From Escherichia coli (lineage in GTDB: Bacteria; Pseudomonadota; Gammaproteobacteria; Enterobacterales; Enterobacteriaceae), in the NCBI RefSeq assembly GCF_024502345.1, contig NZ_JALDNN010000001.1: DNA of 64,000 nt; one strand, given 5' to 3'. A model generated the notes under the pieces. The model was not told the DNA's origin, ran no database searches, and worked only from the letters and a program-made list of their open reading frames with translations. A program made the position numbers and the translations under genes. Positions within the stretch are counted from its first letter, which is position 1; each line of letters starts with the position of its first letter. Shown here piece by piece: positions 4,254 through 15,788 of this stretch.

Positions 4254-4895
4254 ATGCTGAAACGGGAAGGCTGGCGCGATAATCACAAGCGTGTTTACCG
4301 GCTTTACCGCGAGCAGGGATTATCGCTGCGGCTGAAACGCCCCCGCCGCAATAAATCTGCGCTGAAACGTCAGCCACAGCCGCAGGGGCTGTATCCCAAT
4401 CATGTATGGGGGATGGATTTTGTCTCCGATGCGCTGTTTGACGGTCGCCGGCTTCGCCTGCTGACGGTAATCGATCTCTACACGCGCGAATGTCTGGGGA
4501 TCTGCGTGGGCCAGAACCTGCGCTCTTCAGAAGTGGCGGAGATGCTGGACACTATCGCGTTGAGACGCCCATTACCGCAGCTACTGAAGACAGATAATGG
4601 CTCTGAATTTGCAGGGAAAATGCTGGATAAATGGGTGTACGAACGTGATATCCGGATCGATTTCTCACGGCCAGGCACGCCCACGGATAATGCTACGGTG
4701 GAGTCATTCAACGGCAGGCTGCGGCAGGAGTGCCTGAACGAGAACTGGTTTATGTCCAAGGAGGATGCCCGGTGCAAAATCGAGGTCTGGCGCATACACT
4801 ATAACCAGAGTCGTCCCCATTCTGCACTGGGCTGGATGACCCCGTGCGAATTCGCCGAGAAATCTGCCGGTTGCCAGAATAAGCAACCAACCTGA
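4254..4895 (+). CDS. IS3-family orfB (integrase-core domain), probably expressed as an OrfAB fusion
   Basis: The -1 frame relative to orfA is open from about 4047 (KKELTLARLREWVRDLQTRYGASERQVCF); the ORF track starts it at M4254; integrase-core C-terminus (RPHSALGWMTPCEFAE). Confidence 0.8.
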   Translation: MLKREGWRDNHKRVYRLYREQGLSLRLKRPRRNKSALKRQPQPQGLYPNHVWGMDFVSDALFDGRRLRLLTVIDLYTRECLGICVGQNLRSSEVAEMLDTIALRRPLPQLLKTDNGSEFAGKMLDKWVYERDIRIDFSRPGTPTDNATVESFNGRLRQECLNENWFMSKEDARCKIEVWRIHYNQSRPHSALGWMTPCEFAEKSAGCQNKQPT

Positions 4896-4915
4896 AGCCG
4901 GTTATTCCTGATTAT

Positions 4916-4947
4916 AGGCTCCGTTTGGGAAACGGAAAATATTGTAC
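4916..4947. repeat. outer 32 nt of a Tn3-family 38-bp terminal inverted repeat (copy a), split by an IS110-family insertion
   Basis: AGGCTCCGTTTGGGAAACGGAAAATATTGTAC resembles the intact IR at 15751-15788 (GGGGTCCGCTTGGAAAACGGAAATTATCCCAC read from outside); the remaining GTTAAG follows the IS at 6311-6316. Confidence 0.6.
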
Positions 4948-6310
4948 TATAAGGGCTTCCCCGGCATGTCAACGCCGGTTTTATAGTTTCTGTCTGCTCG
5001 TCAGTAAAATAAAGGGGAGAGACTGCGGTACTATAAACGGCCATGATAAATCGTTATCGATTCGGGCCCTGATGAAAGACGCGCGTGAGGTTCTTGTTCG
5101 TTAAGCGGATACGTATATCCTGTACAATAGCCAGATAGGCCTCACGGGGTCTAACCCTTTTTCATCAACGAGTTGCAGGTCAGATGGTTATACTGCTTTG
5201 TGCTTTAGCTGGCTGAGTACAGCCTGAAATCATCACCGTAATGCAACGATGCCCAGCACAGCCTCGCGTTTTTGGCGGCGATGGCTACAACAGCCCGCCA
5301 GTACCCCCTGCGCTCAACCAACTTACAAACCCAACGGCTGAATGAGTCAGTCCTTTTCTCTGCACCAATCAAAACCGAACGGGCCCCCTGAACCAGAAGC
5401 GTTCGCAGATATGAATCGCCCGCTTTCGTTATTCTGCCAAGCTTTGATTTTCCGCCACTGCTGTACTGTGATGGTGTAAGTCCCAGCCAGGCTGCCAGTT
5501 GGCGTCCATTCTTAAAATCATGGGCATTACCGATACTGGCGACCAGCGCACAGGCCGTTGTGGGACCAATCCCTTTCAGTTCCATCAGTCGTTGGCTGCG
5601 GTGATCCGTTTTTGCCATGCGGGACAGGATCCGGTCATATTCAGCGATGTTATCTTCAATGCGATTAATGTGTTCCAGCAGATCATCAACGCATTGCTGA
5701 ACCTGAAGCGGCAAAGAATTCTTCTGTTCAGAAACGATGTGGCGCAGGGCATCTGTACTTTGTGGAGCGATGACGCCGAATTCAGATATCAAACCTCTTA
5801 ATCGGTTATATGTTGCTGTTTTCTCTTCGATAAAACCTTGTCTGGTACGGTGTAGACATTGCATCGCCTGCTGGCTCTCATCCTTCACTGGCACGAACCG
5901 CATATGCGGGCGACGGACAGCCTCACAAATAGCCTGGGCATCAGCTGCATCATTTTTTCCTGATTTACCGGCCATGCGATATGGCGATACGAACTTTGCA
6001 GCCATCAAACGGGGCTCATGGCCATACTGCCGAAACACTCTTGCCCAGTAATGGGCGCCTGAGCACGCCTCCATCCCGATAACACAGGGAGGCAGGCTTG
6101 CAATTAACTCAGGAAGTGCAGCACGCGATACTTTAGGTTTAACCAGAACAGTTTTTCCATTTTGATCAACGCAGTGAACAGCGAACACATTTTTAGCAAG
6201 ATCGATACCGACAGTAGTGATAGTCATAACGAATCCCTCCAGGGCTATGTTTACCCCATGATTGCACAAGAGCTAATCAGGCACATATCCAGGGGAAGTC
6301 CCTTCCATTC
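4948..6310 (-). mobile_element. IS110-family insertion sequence, copy A (IS1111 / IS4321-IS5075-like), 1363 bp
   Basis: Bounded by TATAAGGGCTTCCCC (4948-) and GGGGAAGTCCCTTCCATTC (-6310); contains one IS110-family transposase gene; inserted inside a Tn3-family IR with no target duplication. Confidence 0.85.
5205..6227 (-). CDS. IS110-family transposase (340 aa from MTITTVGIDLAKN)
   Basis: N-terminal VGIDLAKN motif typical of IS110-family transposases; the ORF track begins 14 codons upstream, but copy B starts at the MTITTVGID methionine (6225-6227 here). Confidence 0.88.
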   Translation of the reverse strand: MTITTVGIDLAKNVFAVHCVDQNGKTVLVKPKVSRAALPELIASLPPCVIGMEACSGAHYWARVFRQYGHEPRLMAAKFVSPYRMAGKSGKNDAADAQAICEAVRRPHMRFVPVKDESQQAMQCLHRTRQGFIEEKTATYNRLRGLISEFGVIAPQSTDALRHIVSEQKNSLPLQVQQCVDDLLEHINRIEDNIAEYDRILSRMAKTDHRSQRLMELKGIGPTTACALVASIGNAHDFKNGRQLAAWLGLTPSQYSSGGKSKLGRITKAGDSYLRTLLVQGARSVLIGAEKRTDSFSRWVCKLVERRGYWRAVVAIAAKNARLCWASLHYGDDFRLYSAS

Positions 6311-6350
6311 GTTAAGATCAAATTTTAACCTGTAATACACTGATAAATTA

Positions 6351-6382
6351 GGGGCCCGCTTGGAAAACGGAAAATATCCTAC
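6351..6382. repeat. outer 32 nt of a Tn3-family 38-bp terminal inverted repeat (copy b), split by the second IS110-family insertion
   Basis: GGGGCCCGCTTGGAAAACGGAAAATATCCTAC, then the IS, then GTTAAG at 7746-7751 running directly into the tnpA remnant; together these reconstruct a 38-bp IR closely matching 15751-15788. Confidence 0.75.
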
Positions 6383-7745
6383 TATAAGGGCTTCCCCGAA
6401 CAGTCAACGCCGGTTTTTAATTTCTGTCTGTTCATCAATGAAAGGCAAGGGATAAGACTGCGCTACTATAAACGGTCATGCTGAATCGCTAGTGATTCGG
6501 ACCCTGATGAAAGACGCTCGTGAGATCCTCCTTCGTTAATCGGATAGTGATATCCAGTAGGATATGCAGATACTTCTCACGGGGGTCTAACCCTTTACCA
6601 TCAACAATTTACAGTTCAGTTACTACTCAGTTAAATTTTTCATGTTGTTGAATACAGTCTGAAGTCATCGCCGTAATGTAATGATGCCCAGCACAACCTC
6701 GCATTCTTGGCGGCGATTGCAACGACAGCACGCCAGTATCCCCGCCTACCAATCAACGAGCAGACCCAACGGCTAAACGGGTCCGTTCTATTCTCTGCCC
6801 CTACCATTACAGAACGGGCTCCCTGGACCAGTAGGGTTCGCAGATAGGCATCACCCGCTTTTGTTATCCTGCCAAGCTTTGATTTTCCGCCACTACTGTA
6901 TTGTGATGGCGTTAGCCCCAACCAGGCTGCCAGTTGGCGCCCGTTCTTAAAATCATGGGCATTGCCAATACTGGCGACCAGCGCACTCGCTGTGGTGGGC
7001 CCAACACCTTTCAGTTCCATTAACTGCTGGCTGCGATGATCTGTTTTGGCCACACGAGATAATACCCTGTCATATTCGGCGATTTTCTCTTCAATATTAG
7101 TGACATGTGTCAATAGATCATCAATGCACAGCCTAACCTGTACTGGCAGAGTTTCCTTCTGGTCAGAAACAACATGACGCAGAGCATCAGTGCTTTGTGG
7201 GGCAATAACCCCGAATTCAGATATCAGGCCCCGAAGACGGTTATACGTTGCTGTTCTTTCCTGGATAAATCCCTGTCTTGTCCGATGTAAGCATTGCATT
7301 GCCTGCTGGCTTTCGTCTTTGACTGGTACAAAGCGCATATGCGGCCGCTGCACTGCCTCACAAATAGCTATTGCATCAGCTGCATCATTTTTCCCGGTCT
7401 TACCCGCCATGCGATAGGGTGAGACAAATTTCGGAGCCATCAACCGGACATCATGGCCATACTGCCTGAATAATCTTGCCCAATAGTGGGCACCCGAGCA
7501 GGCTTCCATTCCAATGACACAGGGAGGTAAACCTGCGATGAGTTCAGAAAGTGCTGCACGCGACACCTTGGGTTTAACCAGAACAGCTTTACCATTTTGG
7601 TCAATGCAGTGAACAGCAAACACATTTTTAGCAAGATCGATACCGACAGTGGTGATGGTCATAACGAATCCCTCTGGGTCAATGTTTATCCTATGATTGC
7701 ACGAAAGTTAATCAGGCGCATATCTAGGGGAAGTCCCTTCCATTC
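6383..7745 (-). mobile_element. IS110-family insertion sequence, copy B, 1363 bp
   Basis: Same termini and same length as copy A; the transposase is about 88 percent identical to copy A by eye; inserted at the equivalent position of a second IR copy in the same orientation. Confidence 0.85.
6640..7662 (-). CDS. IS110-family transposase (340 aa)
   Basis: Intact ORF, a paralogue of the copy A transposase. Confidence 0.9.
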   Translation of the reverse strand: MTITTVGIDLAKNVFAVHCIDQNGKAVLVKPKVSRAALSELIAGLPPCVIGMEACSGAHYWARLFRQYGHDVRLMAPKFVSPYRMAGKTGKNDAADAIAICEAVQRPHMRFVPVKDESQQAMQCLHRTRQGFIQERTATYNRLRGLISEFGVIAPQSTDALRHVVSDQKETLPVQVRLCIDDLLTHVTNIEEKIAEYDRVLSRVAKTDHRSQQLMELKGVGPTTASALVASIGNAHDFKNGRQLAAWLGLTPSQYSSGGKSKLGRITKAGDAYLRTLLVQGARSVMVGAENRTDPFSRWVCSLIGRRGYWRAVVAIAAKNARLCWASLHYGDDFRLYSTT

Positions 7746-7746
7746 G

Positions 7747-8088
7747 TTAAGCCTGTTTTTTATACAGACTGCTATCTACTGAGCGTAACGAACGGTATTT
7801 TCCCTGTCCCAGCTTGAGGTTTGTTCGCCAGACGTAATCTCCACTCAAGTTGATGTGTTCCCATCCCAGCGGGGACAGATGAGAAATCAGCTGTTCATTT
7901 AGTGGGATCCCTTTTCGCTTCAGAGAATCTATGGCTCTTTCTATATATACCGTATTCCACAGTGAGATCGCCGCAGTCAGCAATGTCAGCCCGCTGGCCC
8001 GGTAGCTCTGGTTTTCCAGTCCCCGGTCTCTGATTTCCCCCAGCCGGTGCATAAAGACTGCTCGCGCTATAACAGCGCCCCCCCCCAC
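7747..8088 (-). pseudogene. tnpA: Tn3-family transposase TnpA, C-terminal remnant (about 110 codons)
   Basis: [53 protein letters not shown]...LYKKQA parallels the C-terminus of the intact TnpA at 12771-15755; ends next to the split IR; similarity is lost upstream at a poly-C tract near 8078-8086. Confidence 0.8.
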
Positions 8089-8267
8089 GAATCCCTGAAT
8101 AACCTGACACCGGAAGAGTACCGGCTGATGGCTGAAACCCCGGAAATCTCAAAAAGTGCGCGGAACTAAATCGGGTGACATAAAAAATTTCGAATGCTAA
8201 GAGGGCCGGCAGTCACCAGTAAAACCATAATGAGTAACTGCCTGATTAAAGTTGTGGGGATGTATAA

Positions 8268-9044
8268 TTAAAGATTAACGACTTCACCATCTTCAGGGAT
8301 ACTAACCTGGTCAGTAATCTTATTAAGATCTACATACTCATGGATTTCTTTTCGGGTTTGTCCAAAATGATTTACAGATTCCATATGTGTGGAAATAATA
8401 TGTGCTTTTGGAAGTATGTTATGTGTCCTTAGCACATCTTCTTTACCCATGATAATAGGCCCCAGATTTTCCACCTGCGCATATCCCGTATTCAGGATAA
8501 CGATATCAGGCTGATATTTATGCATAACCTGCTCTACATCATTAATCCAGATAGTATCACCAACTATATAGATAGTCTTTTCGCCATCAGACTGGAGAAT
8601 AACCCCCATAGCTTCACCTAATAGCTCTGCCGCAGCGGGGTTGCGGAATGCCTCATCACTACCATGTTGACAGTGAGTTGGAATTAAGCGAATTCCGGCG
8701 TATTCAATTTCATTATCAAGAACTTGTAGGTTAATAAATCCATCGCGGGCCAGTTCGTTTTTGTCTTCAGTATTCTGTACAAAAATAAGCATATCGCGAG
8801 GGATCAGCGCCCGGGCAGCAGCATCCCAGTGGTCATCATGCGTATGAGTAACAATAATAGCATCTACATCAATAACCTCTGATACCGGTAGAGGTAAGTC
8901 AACAAGAGGGTTCCGTAAATGGCGGTTCATCGTCAATGGAAAACCAGGGAATGAACCTTTTGCTGATAACATCGGGTCAATCAGGATTTTTTTTCCTGCA
9001 TAATGAATAATTGCAGTGGCGTTACGGATCTGATGAAATTTCAT
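8268..9044 (-). CDS. MBL-fold metallo-hydrolase (258 aa)
   Basis: Metal-binding motif THTHDDHWD (HxHxDH); no N-terminal signal peptide, so not an obvious secreted class B beta-lactamase. Confidence 0.8.
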   Translation of the reverse strand: MKFHQIRNATAIIHYAGKKILIDPMLSAKGSFPGFPLTMNRHLRNPLVDLPLPVSEVIDVDAIIVTHTHDDHWDAAARALIPRDMLIFVQNTEDKNELARDGFINLQVLDNEIEYAGIRLIPTHCQHGSDEAFRNPAAAELLGEAMGVILQSDGEKTIYIVGDTIWINDVEQVMHKYQPDIVILNTGYAQVENLGPIIMGKEDVLRTHNILPKAHIISTHMESVNHFGQTRKEIHEYVDLNKITDQVSIPEDGEVVNL

Positions 9045-9114
9045 AATAGAACTCCAGTTCTGTATTAACAGAACACAGTAAGAGGATTAATTTACTTTCC
9101 AGCTGGCAGAAGTT

Positions 9115-9896
9115 TTATATCGCTTCTGAACCCCTGAATGTTTTTCGCCATACGGACGGCGATACGCCAAATTTTGCGATAAACTTTTCCCGTAAAGATG
9201 TTGCGGAACTAAAACCAACCAGCTCAGATACCTTCTGTACAGAGTGGGCTGTAGATTCCAGTAATACCTGCGCTTCTCTCAGACGCTCCGTTGTTAACCA
9301 GTCAACCAGTGTCATGCCCGTCGACTGTCGGAAGCGGCGTGTAAAGGTTCGTCGGCTCATGCTAACGACTTCACAAAGTTCATCCAGCGTCCAGCGTCTG
9401 GCCAGGTCCTGGCGCAGCGTTTCAACCAGCAGAATTATCTGGCGATCCTTTGTTGCAGATGGAAAAGGCATCTGAATATACTGAGCCTGTCCCCCGTCCC
9501 GATGAGGCGGGATCACCATTCGCCTTGCTATCTGATTGGCAATATTGCTCCCGTACAACTCCCTGACCAGATACAGACAGCAGTCCATACCCGCACCTGT
9601 ACCGGCAGAAGTAATAATATTATCGTCAGCTACATAGAGCGCATTCATATCCAGGTGGGTATTCGGAAACCGTGACTGAAAATCACTCTCATACAACCAG
9701 TGTGTCGACGCGTTTCTTGCATCCAGTAGTCCTGAATAGGCCAGAGCATAGGCACCAAGGCACAAACCCACAATGGTGGCATTATGCTGTGCAGCTTCCC
9801 GGAGTGCTTCCGTTAACTGTGGCTCCGGTACAATGTCAGGCGATGGCCAGAAAGGAACTATAACCATGTCAGCAGTACGTAACACCGATAAGTCAT
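9115..9896 (-). pseudogene. GlxA-type regulator (DJ-1/PfpI-like domain + AraC-family HTH), C-terminal part of a gene split by the IS2-like element
   Basis: DJ-1-type nucleophile region IVGLCLGAYALA followed by an AraC-type HTH (RRTFTRRFRQSTGMTLVDWL); the frame stays open upstream to the IS boundary at 9896. Confidence 0.8.
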
Positions 9897-9987
9897 TGAT
9901 GTAGCCCCCTGAAACACCGGACAGTAGCTGTATCTCCAGATAAGAGATAGGCTTGAATATATGTCTAACACTAACGCCAATTTTGAG

Positions 9988-10356
9988 ATGACCGGGATCC
10001 TGTTAGGGCAAGAAGTCCGTAAACGTAAAACTCCTCAGGAGAAGATCGCCATTATCCAGCAGACGATGGAGCCGGGTATGAATGTCTCCCATGTCGCCCG
10101 CCTGCATGGTATCCAGCCCAGCCTGCTGTTTAAGTGGAAGAAGCAATATCAGGAAGGCAGCCTCACCGCCGTTGCGGCTGGAGAGGAAGTCGTTCCTGCT
10201 TCTGAGCTTACTGCTGCTCTGAAGCAGGTCCGGGAGCTTCAGCGCCTTCTGGGCAAGAAAACGATGGAAGTTGAGATCCTGAAAGAAGCCGTGGAGTACG
10301 GTCAGTCGCGAAAATGGATAGCGCACGCGCCCTTGTTGCCAAAGGACGGGGAATAG
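9988..10356 (+). CDS. IS2-like orfA (InsC-like)
   Basis: [25 protein letters not shown]...[18 protein letters not shown] parallels IS2 InsC; start taken at the internal ATG 9988 rather than the ORF-track start 9961. Confidence 0.85.
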
Positions 10357-11195
10357 CCATGGTCAGCCGGACCATGGGCGTGTCGCGTGCGCAACTGTCA
10401 CTGCGGATTAACCGTTCTGCCGACTGGCAGGACAGGCGCTGTAACCGGCGTAATGAAGAAGCAGACGCAGAAATACTGTCGGCTATCCTCAACATTATCA
10501 GCGATATGCCGAGTTATGGTTATCGACGCGTGTGGGGCATCCTGCGCAAGCAACGTCGCACAGAGGGACAGCCACCTGTGAATGCCAAACGGCTTTACAG
10601 GATAATGAGCGAGCATAACCTGTTGTTGTTGCATCACAAACCAGAGCGACCGAAGCGTGAACATAAGGGCAAGATAGCGGTGGCAGAAAGCGATATGCGC
10701 TGGTGTTCAGATGGCTTCGAGTTCGGCTGCGACAACGGCGAAAAACTGCGGGTAACGTTCGCGCTGGACTGCTGCGACCGTGAGGCCATAGACTGGGCAG
10801 CAAGCACGGGAGGCTATGACAGTTCGACCGTGCAGGATGTGATGCTGAGGTCGGTGGAAAAGCGCTTCGGCGACAGGTTGCCCGACACAGCGGTGCAGTG
10901 GCTGACGGATAACGGTTCAGCGTATACCGCGTATGAAACGCGGAGGTTCGCGAGAGAGCTGAATCTGGAGCCCTGCACAACAGCGGTGAGCAGCCCGCAG
11001 AGTAATGGCATGGCCGAACGGTTCGTGAAAACGATGAAAGAAGACTATATCGCGTTCATGCCAAAACCGGATGTGAGAACAGCACTGCGAAACCTTGCAG
11101 TAGCGTTCACGCATTACAATGAAAACCACCCGCACAGCGCGCTGGGATATCACTCCCCGAGGGAATACCGGCGGCAGCGGACATCGTTAACTTAA
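10314..11195 (+). CDS. IS2-like orfB (InsD-like, integrase-core domain)
   Basis: MDSARAL...[26 protein letters not shown]...WLTDNGS...[13 protein letters not shown] parallels IS2 InsD. Confidence 0.88.
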
Positions 11196-11232
11196 GATAC
11201 AAAAGCTGTTCGGAGATGGAGGGTCAAGATCA

Positions 11233-11419
11233 ACACCGATAAGTCATATTCCGGTGTAATATGCATACCATGTGAGGTTTTTATAGTCTTTCCCTGCACG
11301 GAGCATAAAACAACGTTAAATAATGAATGGTCCGGGATAATATCTGCAAAAATTGCCAGGGGTACGGAGAGATGAAATGCACTGATATCATCGGTTATCA
11401 AAATGGCTATCTTTTTCAT
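11233..11419 (-). pseudogene. GlxA-type regulator, N-terminal 61 codons (MKKIAILITDDISAFHLSVPLAIF)
   Basis: Start codon at 11417-11419 with a GGAGAG ribosome-binding site; the frame ends inside the IS2-like element; the sequence continues in 9115-9896 after a 15-16 bp direct repeat. Confidence 0.75.
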
Positions 11420-11438
11420 TTCATACTCTCCTGTAAGA

Positions 11439-11843
11439 TTAACTAATCTGACGTACGATATCGTTATAATCAAAGTGCGCACGTTTTTCCTTAATTTTAC
11501 CGCCTTCAATAGTCAGCAGCATCATCAGAGAAATACGTACTTTTTTCCCGGTTGGTTTATATCCGTGCATTTCATTATTGTGGATACCTTCAAAAACAAC
11601 ATAAGCTACGACTTTATCCGCTTCACTGATAAGAACTTCAGGCTTCATGCTGAAGCCCCGGAATCCATCAAGTGTGGCAGTTTCAGATGCGATAAAACCG
11701 TCAACTCCATGAATGGGGTTATCTATCTGTGAATAGAAAACAAAGTCACTGGAGCAAAGTGATTTAAGGGTTAAAAAATCATAACCTTCAAGAGCCTGAT
11801 AAAAATCATGTACAAGTTTTTCATTTGAGTTTTTCATGGTCAT
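11439..11843 (-). CDS. SnoaL-like / NTF2-fold protein (134 aa)
   Basis: Small ORF 19 bp upstream of the regulator gene on the same strand; sequence pattern resembles SnoaL/ketosteroid-isomerase-like proteins (family call is tentative). Confidence 0.6.
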   Translation of the reverse strand: MTMKNSNEKLVHDFYQALEGYDFLTLKSLCSSDFVFYSQIDNPIHGVDGFIASETATLDGFRGFSMKPEVLISEADKVVAYVVFEGIHNNEMHGYKPTGKKVRISLMMLLTIEGGKIKEKRAHFDYNDIVRQIS

Positions 11844-12035: not shown

Positions 12036-12611
12036 TTACTGTCCTGCCTTTACCCTGAGTATGGTTTGCCGGGTTGTATTAAACTCCCGAGCAATGGCGC
12101 TGATACTGGCCCCGGCCTTAATACGTGCAATCACAGAAAGTTTCTGTTCTTCATTCAGTGTTGAAGGACGGCCAAACCGCTTTCCGGCAGCTTTCGCTCT
12201 CGCAATACCAGAGTGCGTACGCTCAAGAAGCAAATCCCTTTCAAATTCTGCCACAGCAGAGATGACCTGCATGGTCATTTTTCCTGCCGGGCTTGTCAAA
12301 TCAACTCCGCCCAGCGCGAGGCAGTGAACGCGAATATCTGAAGCAGCCAGTTGTTCAACCGTTTTTCTGATATCCATCGCATTGCGCCCCAGTCGGTCGA
12401 GTTTAGTAACAATCAGCACATCACCATTTTCCATGCGATCAAGCAGCCGGATAAATCCGGGGCGTTCGCTGGCAGCAACCGAACCACTGATATGCTCCTC
12501 AATCAGTCGCTGGGGTCTGATGGCAAAACCCGCCGTTTCAATTTCACGCCGCTGATTTTCTGTAGTCTGTTCCAGAGTGGAGACCCGGCAATAAGCAAAA
12601 ACTCGTGACAT
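12036..12611 (-). CDS. tnpR: serine recombinase / resolvase TnpR (191 aa from [15 protein letters not shown])
   Basis: N-terminal catalytic serine motif (YCRVST) and C-terminal HTH; divergent from tnpA; start taken at the internal ATG 12609-12611 rather than the ORF-track start. Confidence 0.88.
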
Positions 12612-12770
12612 AGGAAACTTTCCGTACGTAAAGGATGTCCGAATTATAGCGTGTGTACGAAATAAATTTCGCTTACTTTCGGACATACTGTCAGCTTAGT
12701 GTACGAAACCGACCGGTTTCGGTCACAGCGAACAAATAACAGATGAAAACTATACGCGAGGGAGGCATTT

Positions 12771-15755
12771 ATGCCACGGCGACAGATACTGAGCAGCGAA
12801 GAGCAGGAACGCTTACTGGTTATACCAGATGATGAAATTATTCTGACCCGAATGTGTTTTCTGAACGAACCGGATATTGCGCTCATTAATAAGCACCGAA
12901 GGCCAGCGAATCGCCTGGGCTTTGCTGTATTACTCTGTTATCTGCGTGGACCTGGATTTATTCCGGACAAAAGCAGTGCTCCTCACAATGGCGTTGTATC
13001 CAGGGTTGCTTCCCGACTGAAACTTCAGCCTGATTTATGGCCGGAATATGCATCCAGAGAGCAAACCCGCTGGGAACATCTGACCGAACTTTATCGCTAC
13101 CTGGAACTATCCCCGTTCAGCCGGTCAATGCAAAAAGACTGTATCCGTCATCTGCACCCCTATGCCATGCGAACTGACAAAGGATTTATGCTGGCGGAAG
13201 AAATGCTCAGCTGGCTACATAACAATAATGTTATTTTCCCTTCTGTTGAAGTGATCGAACGGACGCTTGCCGAAGTCGTCACGCTCGCTAACAGATCGGT
13301 ATTTTCGACACTTACCGCGCAACTGGAAAAGCAGCATAAATCAGCACTCGACAGCCTGCTCATATCAGAGGGTGAACAACCTTCCCGTCTGGCATGGCTG
13401 CTACAGCCTCCGGGTAAAATAAACGGTAAAAATGTGCTGCAACATATCGACCGGCTTAATTCCATCGCTGCGCTGGGGTTGCCTGATGGTATTGCACTTT
13501 CCGTTCACCAGAACAGGTTGCTTAAACTGGCGCGTGAGGGCCGGAAAATGAGCAGCAGGGACCTGGCAAAATTCACCGATGTCAGACGTTACGCTACGCT
13601 GGTTTGTATAATAACAGAGGCCAGGGCCACCCTGACTGACGAAGTGATTGATCTGCACGAGCGTATCCTGGGTAGTCTGTTCAGCAGGGCAAAACGCACG
13701 CAGGCCGAACGGCTCCAGCAAACGGGAAAGCTTATTCAGAGCAAGCTGAAGCAGTACGTTACCGTCGGGCAGGCGTTACTTAACGCCAGAGAATCCGGGG
13801 AAGATCCCTGGACTGCAATAGAAGATGTCCTTCCCTGGCAGGAATTCATCAACAGCGTGGAAGAAACGCGGTTTCTTTCCCGTAAGGGCAATTTCGACGC
13901 GCTTCATCTGATCACCGAAAAATACAGTACGTTGCGTAAATATGCCCCGCGTATGCTGTCAGCATTGCAGTTCATGGCGACACCTGCGGCGCAGGCGCTC
14001 AGCGATGCGCTGGACACCATAACGGAAATGTACCGTAAACAACTTCGTAAAGTGCCGCCATCAGCGCCAACAGGGTTTATCCCTGAAAGCTGGCGAAAAC
14101 TGGTGCTCACGCCTTCAGGCATCGACCGCAAGTACTACGAGTTTTGCGTACTGAATGAACTCAAGGGTGCATTACGTTCCGGTGATATCTGGGTAAAAGG
14201 ATCGCGCCGCTACAAAAATTTTGATGATTATCTCATCCCGACTGCTGAGTTTGAGAAATCCCGACATAATGACCAGTTACAGTTGGCCGTTCAGACCGAT
14301 AGCCAGGCATACCTTCAGGCCCGTATGACTCTTCTTGCATCTCGGCTGGAAGAAGTTAACGCGATGGCGCTTGCCGGTGATTTGCCCGATGTAGATATCT
14401 CAGATAAAGGCGTAAAAATCACTCCACTGGAGAACAGCGTTCCTTCAGGTGTTTCGCCCTTTGCAGATTTGGTCTATGGCATGCTTCCCCATCCGAAAAT
14501 TACGGAGATACTGGAAGAAGTTGATAGCTGGACGGGATTTACGCGTCACTTCGCGCACCTCAAAAATAATAACGTCAGACCAAAAGACGGAAGACTGTTG
14601 CTGACCACCATTCTGGCTGACGGCATCAACCTTGGGCTGACAAAAATGGCGGAATCCTGCCCTGGGGCCACAAGATCGTCACTCGAAGGTATTCAGACAT
14701 GGTACATCAGGGATGAAACTTATTCAGCGGCACTGGCCGAGCTGGTCAACGCACAGAAAGAGCGGCCTCTGGCCGCATTCTGGGGCGACGGGACAACATC
14801 GTCGTCAGACGGGCAGAACTTTCGGGTAGGCAGTCACGGACGTTATGCCGGTCAGGTCAATCTTAAATATGGTCAGGAGCCGGGCGTGCAGATTTATACG
14901 CATATCTCAGACCAATACAGCCCGTTCTACGCCAAAGTGATCAGCCGGGTGCGCGACTCAACCCACGTGCTTGATGGCCTGCTGTACCATGAAAGCGATC
15001 TGGAAATTACCGAGCATTACACCGATACCGCAGGCTTCACTGAACATGTTTTCGCCCTGATGCACCTGCTGGGATTCGCTTTTGCGCCAAGGATCCGTGA
15101 TCTTCATGACAAGCGGCTGTTTATTCATGGAAAGGCCGAGCGCTATCCGGGGCTTCAGTCTGTCATATCAACAACCTGCCTGAATATCAAAGACATTGAG
15201 TCGCACTGGGATGAGGTATTGCGCCTGGCAACCTCGATTAAGCAGGGGACAGTCACCGCATCACTGATGATGAAAAAGTTAGCCAGTTACCCAAAACAGA
15301 ATGGACTTGCCAAAGCGCTGAGAGAGATTGGCCGCATCGAACGGACACTATTTATGCTGGACTGGTTCCGTGATCCCGGTCTGCGCCGACGCGTGCAGGC
15401 GGGGCTGAATAAGGGTGAGGCCCGTAATGCCCTTGCGCGAGCGGTCTTTTTGCACCGTCTGGGTGAAATAAGGGATCGTGGGCTGGAGAATCAGAGTTAT
15501 CGCGCCAGCGGGCTGACATTACTGACAGCAGCGATCACGTTGTGGAACACGGTATATATAGAAAGAGCTATTGAGTCACTAAAACGAAAGGGTATCCCGA
15601 TAAATGAGCAACTGGTCTCTCATCTTTCTCCCCTGGGCTGGGAACATATCAATCTGAGTGGAGATTACGTCTGGCGTAATAATCTTAAGCTGGGATCCGG
15701 AAAATACCGCTCATTACGTACAGTCGATACCGCTTTGTACAAAAAACAGTCTTAG
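12771..15755 (+). CDS. tnpA: Tn3-family transposase TnpA (994 aa)
   Basis: Size and sequence pattern typical of Tn3-family TnpA (about 1000 aa); the stop codon lies inside the terminal IR. Confidence 0.93.
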   Translation: MPRRQILSSEEQERLLVIPDDEIILTRMCFLNEPDIALINKHRRPANRLGFAVLLCYLRGPGFIPDKSSAPHNGVVSRVASRLKLQPDLWPEYASREQTRWEHLTELYRYLELSPFSRSMQKDCIRHLHPYAMRTDKGFMLAEEMLSWLHNNNVIFPSVEVIERTLAEVVTLANRSVFSTLTAQLEKQHKSALDSLLISEGEQPSRLAWLLQPPGKINGKNVLQHIDRLNSIAALGLPDGIALSVHQNRLLKLAREGRKMSSRDLAKFTDVRRYATLVCIITEARATLTDEVIDLHERILGSLFSRAKRTQAERLQQTGKLIQSKLKQYVTVGQALLNARESGEDPWTAIEDVLPWQEFINSVEETRFLSRKGNFDALHLITEKYSTLRKYAPRMLSALQFMATPAAQALSDALDTITEMYRKQLRKVPPSAPTGFIPESWRKLVLTPSGIDRKYYEFCVLNELKGALRSGDIWVKGSRRYKNFDDYLIPTAEFEKSRHNDQLQLAVQTDSQAYLQARMTLLASRLEEVNAMALAGDLPDVDISDKGVKITPLENSVPSGVSPFADLVYGMLPHPKITEILEEVDSWTGFTRHFAHLKNNNVRPKDGRLLLTTILADGINLGLTKMAESCPGATRSSLEGIQTWYIRDETYSAALAELVNAQKERPLAAFWGDGTTSSSDGQNFRVGSHGRYAGQVNLKYGQEPGVQIYTHISDQYSPFYAKVISRVRDSTHVLDGLLYHESDLEITEHYTDTAGFTEHVFALMHLLGFAFAPRIRDLHDKRLFIHGKAERYPGLQSVISTTCLNIKDIESHWDEVLRLATSIKQGTVTASLMMKKLASYPKQNGLAKALREIGRIERTLFMLDWFRDPGLRRRVQAGLNKGEARNALARAVFLHRLGEIRDRGLENQSYRASGLTLLTAAITLWNTVYIERAIESLKRKGIPINEQLVSHLSPLGWEHINLSGDYVWRNNLKLGSGKYRSLRTVDTALYKKQS

Positions 15756-15788
15756 CGTGGGATAATTTCCGTTTTCCAAGCGGACCCC
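15751..15788. repeat. Tn3-family 38-bp terminal inverted repeat (tnpA-proximal end)
   Basis: Reverse complement reads GGGGTCCGCTTGGAAAACGGAAATTATCCCACGCTAAG; starts with GGGG and ends TAAG, as in Tn3-family IRs. Confidence 0.85.

Follow-up and report, generated by a model that had tools for sequence, protein, structure and literature searches.

The nine-C homopolymer analysed here lies within a deletion scar in a mosaic Tn3-family transposon, where a truncated IS3-family remnant has very probably been fused to a truncated Tn3-family tnpA. The scar was examined in a 64-kb stretch of Escherichia coli DNA (64,000 nucleotides, referred to below as the window), using comparisons with intact relatives of both mobile-element genes and with other genomes that carry the same junction. 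The features of the scar are as follows.

7747..8067, minus strand: 3' remnant of a Tn3-family tnpA, comprising the last 106 codons and the stop, with the intact-gene frame ending at the breakpoint
8067..8068, no strand: breakpoint of the two remnants, read as a blunt join with zero shared bases
8068..8177, plus strand: right-end remnant of an IS3-family (IS1400-like) element, made up of the last 33 orfB codons with their stop (8068-8169) and, after them, some of the right terminal repeat
8078..8086, plus strand: nine-C homopolymer, standing where the conserved E-R-P-H motif has its Glu-Arg-Pro codons, with a length that varies between assemblies
8047..8169, plus strand: mechanical 40-codon ORF spanning the junction from a GTG start, with no promoter-like site upstream and not taken to be a gene

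RefSeq already annotates the tnpA and IS3 remnants as incomplete pseudogenes.

Two truncated transposase genes

The minus-strand tnpA remnant recognised in an earlier note on this DNA is indeed present. Its stop codon lies at 7747, and it shares 97.5% DNA identity with the intact tnpA of the K. quasipneumoniae plasmid p13294-1NR (NZ_MT570100, L002). The remnant corresponds to the end of two profile models, matching positions 312-389 of 389 in Pfam DDE_Tnp_Tn3 (E 1.8e-23) and positions 874-954 of 954 in NCBIfam transpos_Tn3, and the large DDE transposase of the Tn3 family is represented in full by a 994-codon tnpA at 12771-15755.

The same note had described a 27-codon frame that continues from the tract to a stop and resembles the tail of a DDE transposase. 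This frame was found, running from CAC (8086) to TAA (8169) as CAC GAA TCC ... AAC TAA, and TBLASTN of its 27 residues against 72,556 plasmids returned IS3-family matches with E values of 1e-9 to 1e-5, in which up to 26 of the 27 residues (96%) match the C-termini of annotated IS3-family transposases. The transposase-derived frame starts at 8068, not after the tract, and comprises 33 codons and the stop. The peptide is the genuine C-terminal end of a transposase of the IS3 family (IS1400-like).

At the DNA level, the IS3 remnant is 92.7% identical to positions 1090-1199 of a 1207-bp intact relative on K. pneumoniae pGZKP13-2 (L001 1393-2599), the ends of which were set by the IS903B copy that the element interrupts. 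The right end of the relatives reads ...GGGTGCGCTTACA and that of the window ...GGGTGACA, the right terminal repeat of the window having five of its last eight bases missing or replaced; the remnant may extend to 8180 (ACA). Family assignment was made through homology to OrfB and its gene, since the 33-residue window piece alone is too short for profiles and matched nothing in Pfam or NCBIfam. The OrfB of an intact relative (L014, 294 residues) scores 235.8 bits against the NCBIfam IS3 equivalog NF033516, with a cutoff of 160, and contains HTH_21, rve and rve_3 domains, while the corresponding OrfA contains an HTH_Tnp_1 domain.

Compared with intact IS1400-like elements (L001 1393-2599, L014 and L012), the window shares the last 110 bases of an approximately 1.2-kb element, covering the end of the rve_3 integrase core and part of the right terminal repeat. 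It retains 9% of the element, lacks orfA, the catalytic DDE residues and the left end, and has extra C residues replacing the E-R-P codons. None of the marks of a functional IS3 element was found in the remnant: there is no rve core, no frameshifted orfA and orfB pair and no pair of terminal repeats ending in ...CA with a target duplication (the left end is absent), and the window has no other part of the element. No IS-free empty site was found beside the MBL-hydrolase gene that follows the remnant, each plasmid copy having either the remnant or a cut made by another element. The name IS1400-like is a lead, taken from the depositor's gene name trp1400A in a relative on a Serratia plasmid together with the listing of IS1400 in the IS3 family (PMC10434048).

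In E. coli CFSAN061762 (L004), an intact IS3-family element stands immediately left of the tnpA remnant; it was considered as the parent and rejected, as it is unrelated at the DNA level. In other plasmids, the remnant or its flank has been cut again by rearrangements at the equivalents of 8121, 8197, 8201 and 8210, and in K. pneumoniae pKP13f (L003) IS26 directly follows 8201. The region of the remnant has been reworked repeatedly.

A derived poly-C tract in the IS3-family remnant

The tract consists of exactly nine C residues on the plus strand at 8078-8086, just as the earlier note had it, and sits within the IS3-family remnant. It is the sole C or G run of seven or more across the 64-kb window; from base composition, the expected number of runs of at least nine is about 0.18 for C and 0.14 for G. 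At the tract the window reads TAT AAC AGC GCC CCC CCC CAC GAA, and intact relatives read TAT AAC AGC/GGC GAG CGN CCN CAY GAA, which encodes Tyr-Asn-Ser/Gly-Glu-Arg-Pro-His-Glu close to where the rve_3 integrase-core domain ends. The relatives follow the pattern AGCGAGCG(N)CC(N)CA(Y), typically with AGC GAG CGC CCC CAY (S-E-R-P-H) at the tract site, and their C run is five or shorter in more than 100 copies from about 80 species.

The species survey used a conserved 20-mer just 3' of the tract, with one genome per species across 100,044 species, and yielded 120 stretches, mostly from Enterobacterales. Among 122 copies and remnants drawn from GTDB species representatives and plasmid relatives, the longest C run at the site is five, and all read N-G/A-Y GAG CGN CCN CAY without exception. 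Runs of 7 to 13 C are confined to sequences with the tnpA/IS3 junction, all of which read AGCG + Cn + AC. Because only the junction lineage has the long run, the run would have arisen in the dead remnant; by comparison with the relatives it is a derived state, and neither a trait of the IS family nor filler at the join.

No intact IS with exactly the sequence of the remnant was found; the nearest intact relatives match 85 of 89 bases over 8089-8177, so that the ancestral sequence of the tract is reconstructed from relatives. We propose that a native C5, belonging to the Arg-Pro-His codons of the IS3 transposase gene, was lengthened after the death of the gene. The most economical route would begin with deletion of a single AGCG unit of the AGCGAGCG tandem and continue with expansion of the C run, in which case the parent IS would be expected to read AGCGAGCGCCCCCAC at the E-R-P-H codons.

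Tract length varies among assemblies

The full junction was found in 53 of 5,426 complete E. coli genomes (chromosomes and plasmids), and also on Klebsiella and Enterobacter plasmids. Tract lengths in the 53 genomes were assigned from match length.

7 C: 1 genome
8 C: 5 genomes
9 C: 34 genomes (the mode)
10 C: 6 genomes
11 C: 4 genomes
12 C: 2 genomes
13 C: 1 genome

One example of each length from 7 to 13 C was checked by sequence, and the differences were confined to the C run. As a control, a T8 run at 8987, about 900 bases away, was unchanged in length in 55 of 56 assemblies, a set that includes assemblies with 8, 10, 11, 12 and 13 C. This comparison supports instability specific to the tract. 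The suggestion that the tract is slippage-prone thus survives in part: its variation among deposited assemblies fits slippage, at the level of assemblies rather than of reads, the lengths being those of finished assemblies made with mixed and unknown technologies.

Were the tract of one fixed natural length, the spread would consist of homopolymer errors in sequencing or assembly only. Several sequencing platforms are known to handle long G/C homopolymers poorly, and three almost identical chromosomes from one hospital, CH458, CH425 and CH423, show 11, 10 and 13 C, a spread that fits assembly noise as well as rapid slippage. However, the T8 run has its expected length in all but one of the same assemblies, and other near-identical pairs agree, with 11 C in both Res13 strains and a fit to 9 C in both 2018-11-3CC and TBU0218_11-3CC. 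The early complete sequence pSE11-2 has 7 C, against a modal class of 9, and G/C runs of this length (7-13) are known to be unstable in enterobacteria. We consider a single fixed length doubtful, though still a serious contender, and regard the length differences as probably biological rather than sequencing error.

The variation has practical consequences for annotation. The RefSeq label of the IS remnant changes with the C run: among the copies checked (L004-L010), it is "integrase" at 7, 8, 11 and 13 C and "IS3 family transposase" at 10 C, and no feature is given at 9 or 12 C. The tract result explains these genome-to-genome differences in the labels of annotation pipelines. Assemblies are also likely to miscall the homopolymer here, and the C run could be a minor typing marker for the transposon unit.

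The junction lies ten bases from the tract

The breakpoint was mapped by setting the window against an intact tnpA and an intact IS in a three-way comparison. Homology to tnpA in the window ends with ...GACTGCTCGCGC at 8067, after which the intact gene continues with AAGGGC and the window with TATAAC, ten bases to the left of the C run. Bases 8068-8086, the tract included, align to intact IS3-family elements. Neither parent overlaps the other, and microhomology across 8067/8068 amounts to zero bases. Since no base is common to both parents across the break, the alignments identify 8067/8068 as an illegitimate, blunt join of two mobile-element genes, both truncated. An identical junction is found in the 53 complete E. 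coli genomes and in several plasmids.

The earlier note had let similarity to the intact TnpA run up to the C tract and had taken the tract as a possible mark of illegitimate recombination. The alignment to L002 stops ten bases short of it, which corrects the first statement; as to the second, an illegitimate junction does exist, but the tract neither is nor marks it. For the poly-C itself to be the junction, it would have to have formed by slippage or template switching at the homopolymer, or as untemplated filler during joining. The tract is merely ten bases from the true break, and within the first 20 bases of the remnant every difference from intact IS copies clusters at the tract, as would fit error-prone synthesis during joining. 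However, 9 or 10 of the ten bases between break and tract, TATAACAGCG, are shared with intact IS copies, and the register is kept after the tract, which together place the tract inside one parent. The native IS sequence already has C5 at this point, and the tnpA parent has no C or G run at the matching point. An origin of the tract in the joining event itself is therefore improbable and, on these alignments, appears largely refuted.

We also asked where other right-end remnants of such elements are broken, mapping 44 internal remnants from the 20-mer scan of 100,044 species. A site-specific, recurrent internal breakpoint was rejected, as breakpoints near the right end scatter across positions 1059-1111 without any one hot spot; L013 and L015, two further independent right-end remnants, break within 10 bases of the break in the window. 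The IS1400-like right-end remnants are skewed to very short pieces without a common site, 11 of the 44 internal left breakpoints falling in the last 53 mappable bases, with 2.1 expected under a uniform distribution (KS p ~1e-8). Progressive erosion, selection against longer pieces, or BLAST matches that end early may account for this excess. Many draft-genome contigs start 28-30 bases before the 20-mer (L038, L048-L050, L059, L064, L068, L070 and L091, and further L094-L096, L118 and L131-L136). This apparent sharp truncation is an artefact: each match comprises exactly 127 bases from the IS end, and the contigs start there because of the k-mer overlap of the assembler at a repeat in short-read drafts, not because of biological truncation.

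No detectable function of the tract

No promoter-like or terminator-like sites were found within about 280 bases of the tract, and Rfam gave no match in 4800-9200. The nearest real gene, encoding the MBL hydrolase, ends 180 bases from the tract and points toward it. The tract thus has no detectable function and controls nothing, with no gene, promoter, terminator or RNA family depending on it.

Like the phase-variable poly-G/C loci of Neisseria, Haemophilus and Campylobacter, the tract is a G/C homopolymer of 7-13 residues with a length that differs between isolates, here as read from assemblies and with the T8 control stable. Unlike those contingency loci, it arose by the decay of a dead gene, and it lies in neither an expressed coding sequence nor a promoter, being overlapped by two dead fragments and mechanical ORFs. 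As it is outside any intact coding sequence or promoter, no phenotype can switch.

A phase switch in which a minus-strand GTG (8088-8086) opens onto the G run, so that length toggles a truncated TnpA, is far-fetched: 9 or 12 G would be in frame with the 106-codon TnpA C-terminal fragment, a 113-codon ORF (8088..7747) exists at 9 C, AGGGA stands just upstream of the GTG and 36 of the 53 genomes have a frame-keeping length, but no promoter-like site was found nearby, the fragment covers the last 78 positions of the DDE domain without the catalytic core or the DNA-binding N-terminus, an in-frame ATG (8052-8050, minus strand) could start a shorter form whatever the tract length, and the excess of 9 C is what a common ancestor would give. 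It is just as implausible that a hypermutable tract, spread with the transposon, gates this 113-residue TnpA C-terminal fragment and thereby modulates transposition of the element; a weaker version would leave the tract as a fast-evolving marker for tracing the transposon. We regard the locus as an ordinary scar that matters little.

The mosaic Tn3-family transposon around the scar

Judged from gene order and terminal repeats, the scar sits in a mosaic Tn3-family transposon of about 6.7 kb. Its order is terminal repeat (IR), tnpA remnant, IS3 remnant, MBL hydrolase, GlxA regulator, ester cyclase, tnpR, tnpA and IR, with the following parts beyond the scar.

6351..6382, plus strand: outer 32 bases of a 38-bp terminal repeat that goes with the tnpA remnant
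7746-7751: inner 6 bases of the same repeat, split from the outer part by an IS110-family insertion
8268-9044, minus strand: MBL-fold hydrolase gene
9115-9885 and 11192-11509, minus strand: pieces of a GlxA-family regulator gene, split by an IS2-like element
11439-11843: ester cyclase gene
12036-12686, minus strand: tnpR
12771-15755, plus strand: intact tnpA of 994 codons, 82% identical to that of the L002 transposon
15751-15788: 38-bp terminal repeat at the right end of the unit

The repeats have the form expected of the Tn3 family (about 38 bp, GGGG...TAAG), 6351-6388 pairing with 15751-15788 at 87% complementarity. The split repeat was compared with its uninterrupted form in L004 and L137, and L137 has both repeats intact. 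Identity between the two tnpA 3' ends is 81-82%, and between the terminal repeats 87%, which indicates that another Tn3-family transposon was the source of the left end. On an E. coli ST131 plasmid, a 6.7-kb copy without interruptions (L137 1470-8192) is 99.9% identical to the unit in the window and has the 5-bp sequence ATATT on both sides, as expected for Tn3-family transposition. The unit in the window has no 5-bp duplication (AATTA vs AGGGA), and neither does that in pSE11-2. With the duplication seen in L137 only, a single clean example supports movement of the whole unit.

In the proposed sequence of events, an IS3 (IS1400-like) element would have adjoined the block of MBL-hydrolase, GlxA-regulator and ester-cyclase genes. 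The join at 8067/8068 would then have fused the last 321 bases of a foreign tnpA to the last ~110 bases of this element, the tnpA piece bringing with it a usable 38-bp terminal repeat. The scar belongs to a mobile unit whose cargo is an MBL-fold hydrolase, a GlxA-type regulator and an ester cyclase, and at least 53 complete E. coli genomes have this unit.

The unit resembles Tn3-family transposons with 38-bp repeats that are targeted by IS110-family elements of the IS4321/IS5075 type. Its remnant has a tnpA 3' end and a GGGG...TAAG repeat, and the unit further shares tnpA, tnpR, inverted 38-bp ends, the 5-bp duplication (in one copy) and IS110-family elements at one fixed position of the repeat. 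It differs from them in that the left end is foreign to the resident tnpA and meets the cargo at a blunt deletion scar instead of a res site.

In many E. coli chromosomes the unit adjoins the mrk (type 3 fimbriae) region (L004). A term search of a paper on mobile mrk cassettes gave no passage on the tnpA/IS3 junction.

Within the window, the GlxA-family regulator gene, which is intact in L004 and L137, is split by an IS2-like element at approximately 9890-11220 (orfA 9961-10356, orfB 10314-11195). Two tandem IS110-family elements are located at 4948-6310 and 6383-7745. Their transposases, of 340 and 354 codons, match the NCBIfam model 'IS110 family RNA-guided transposase' at about 357-360 bits, and both elements occupy the same position (…CCTAC / GTAC | …| CGTTAAG) in two adjacent Tn3-type 38-bp repeats. 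In other plasmids, IS4321, IS5075 and IS5708 adjoin the same terminal repeat, which points to repeated and independent targeting of the repeat by members of the IS110 family.
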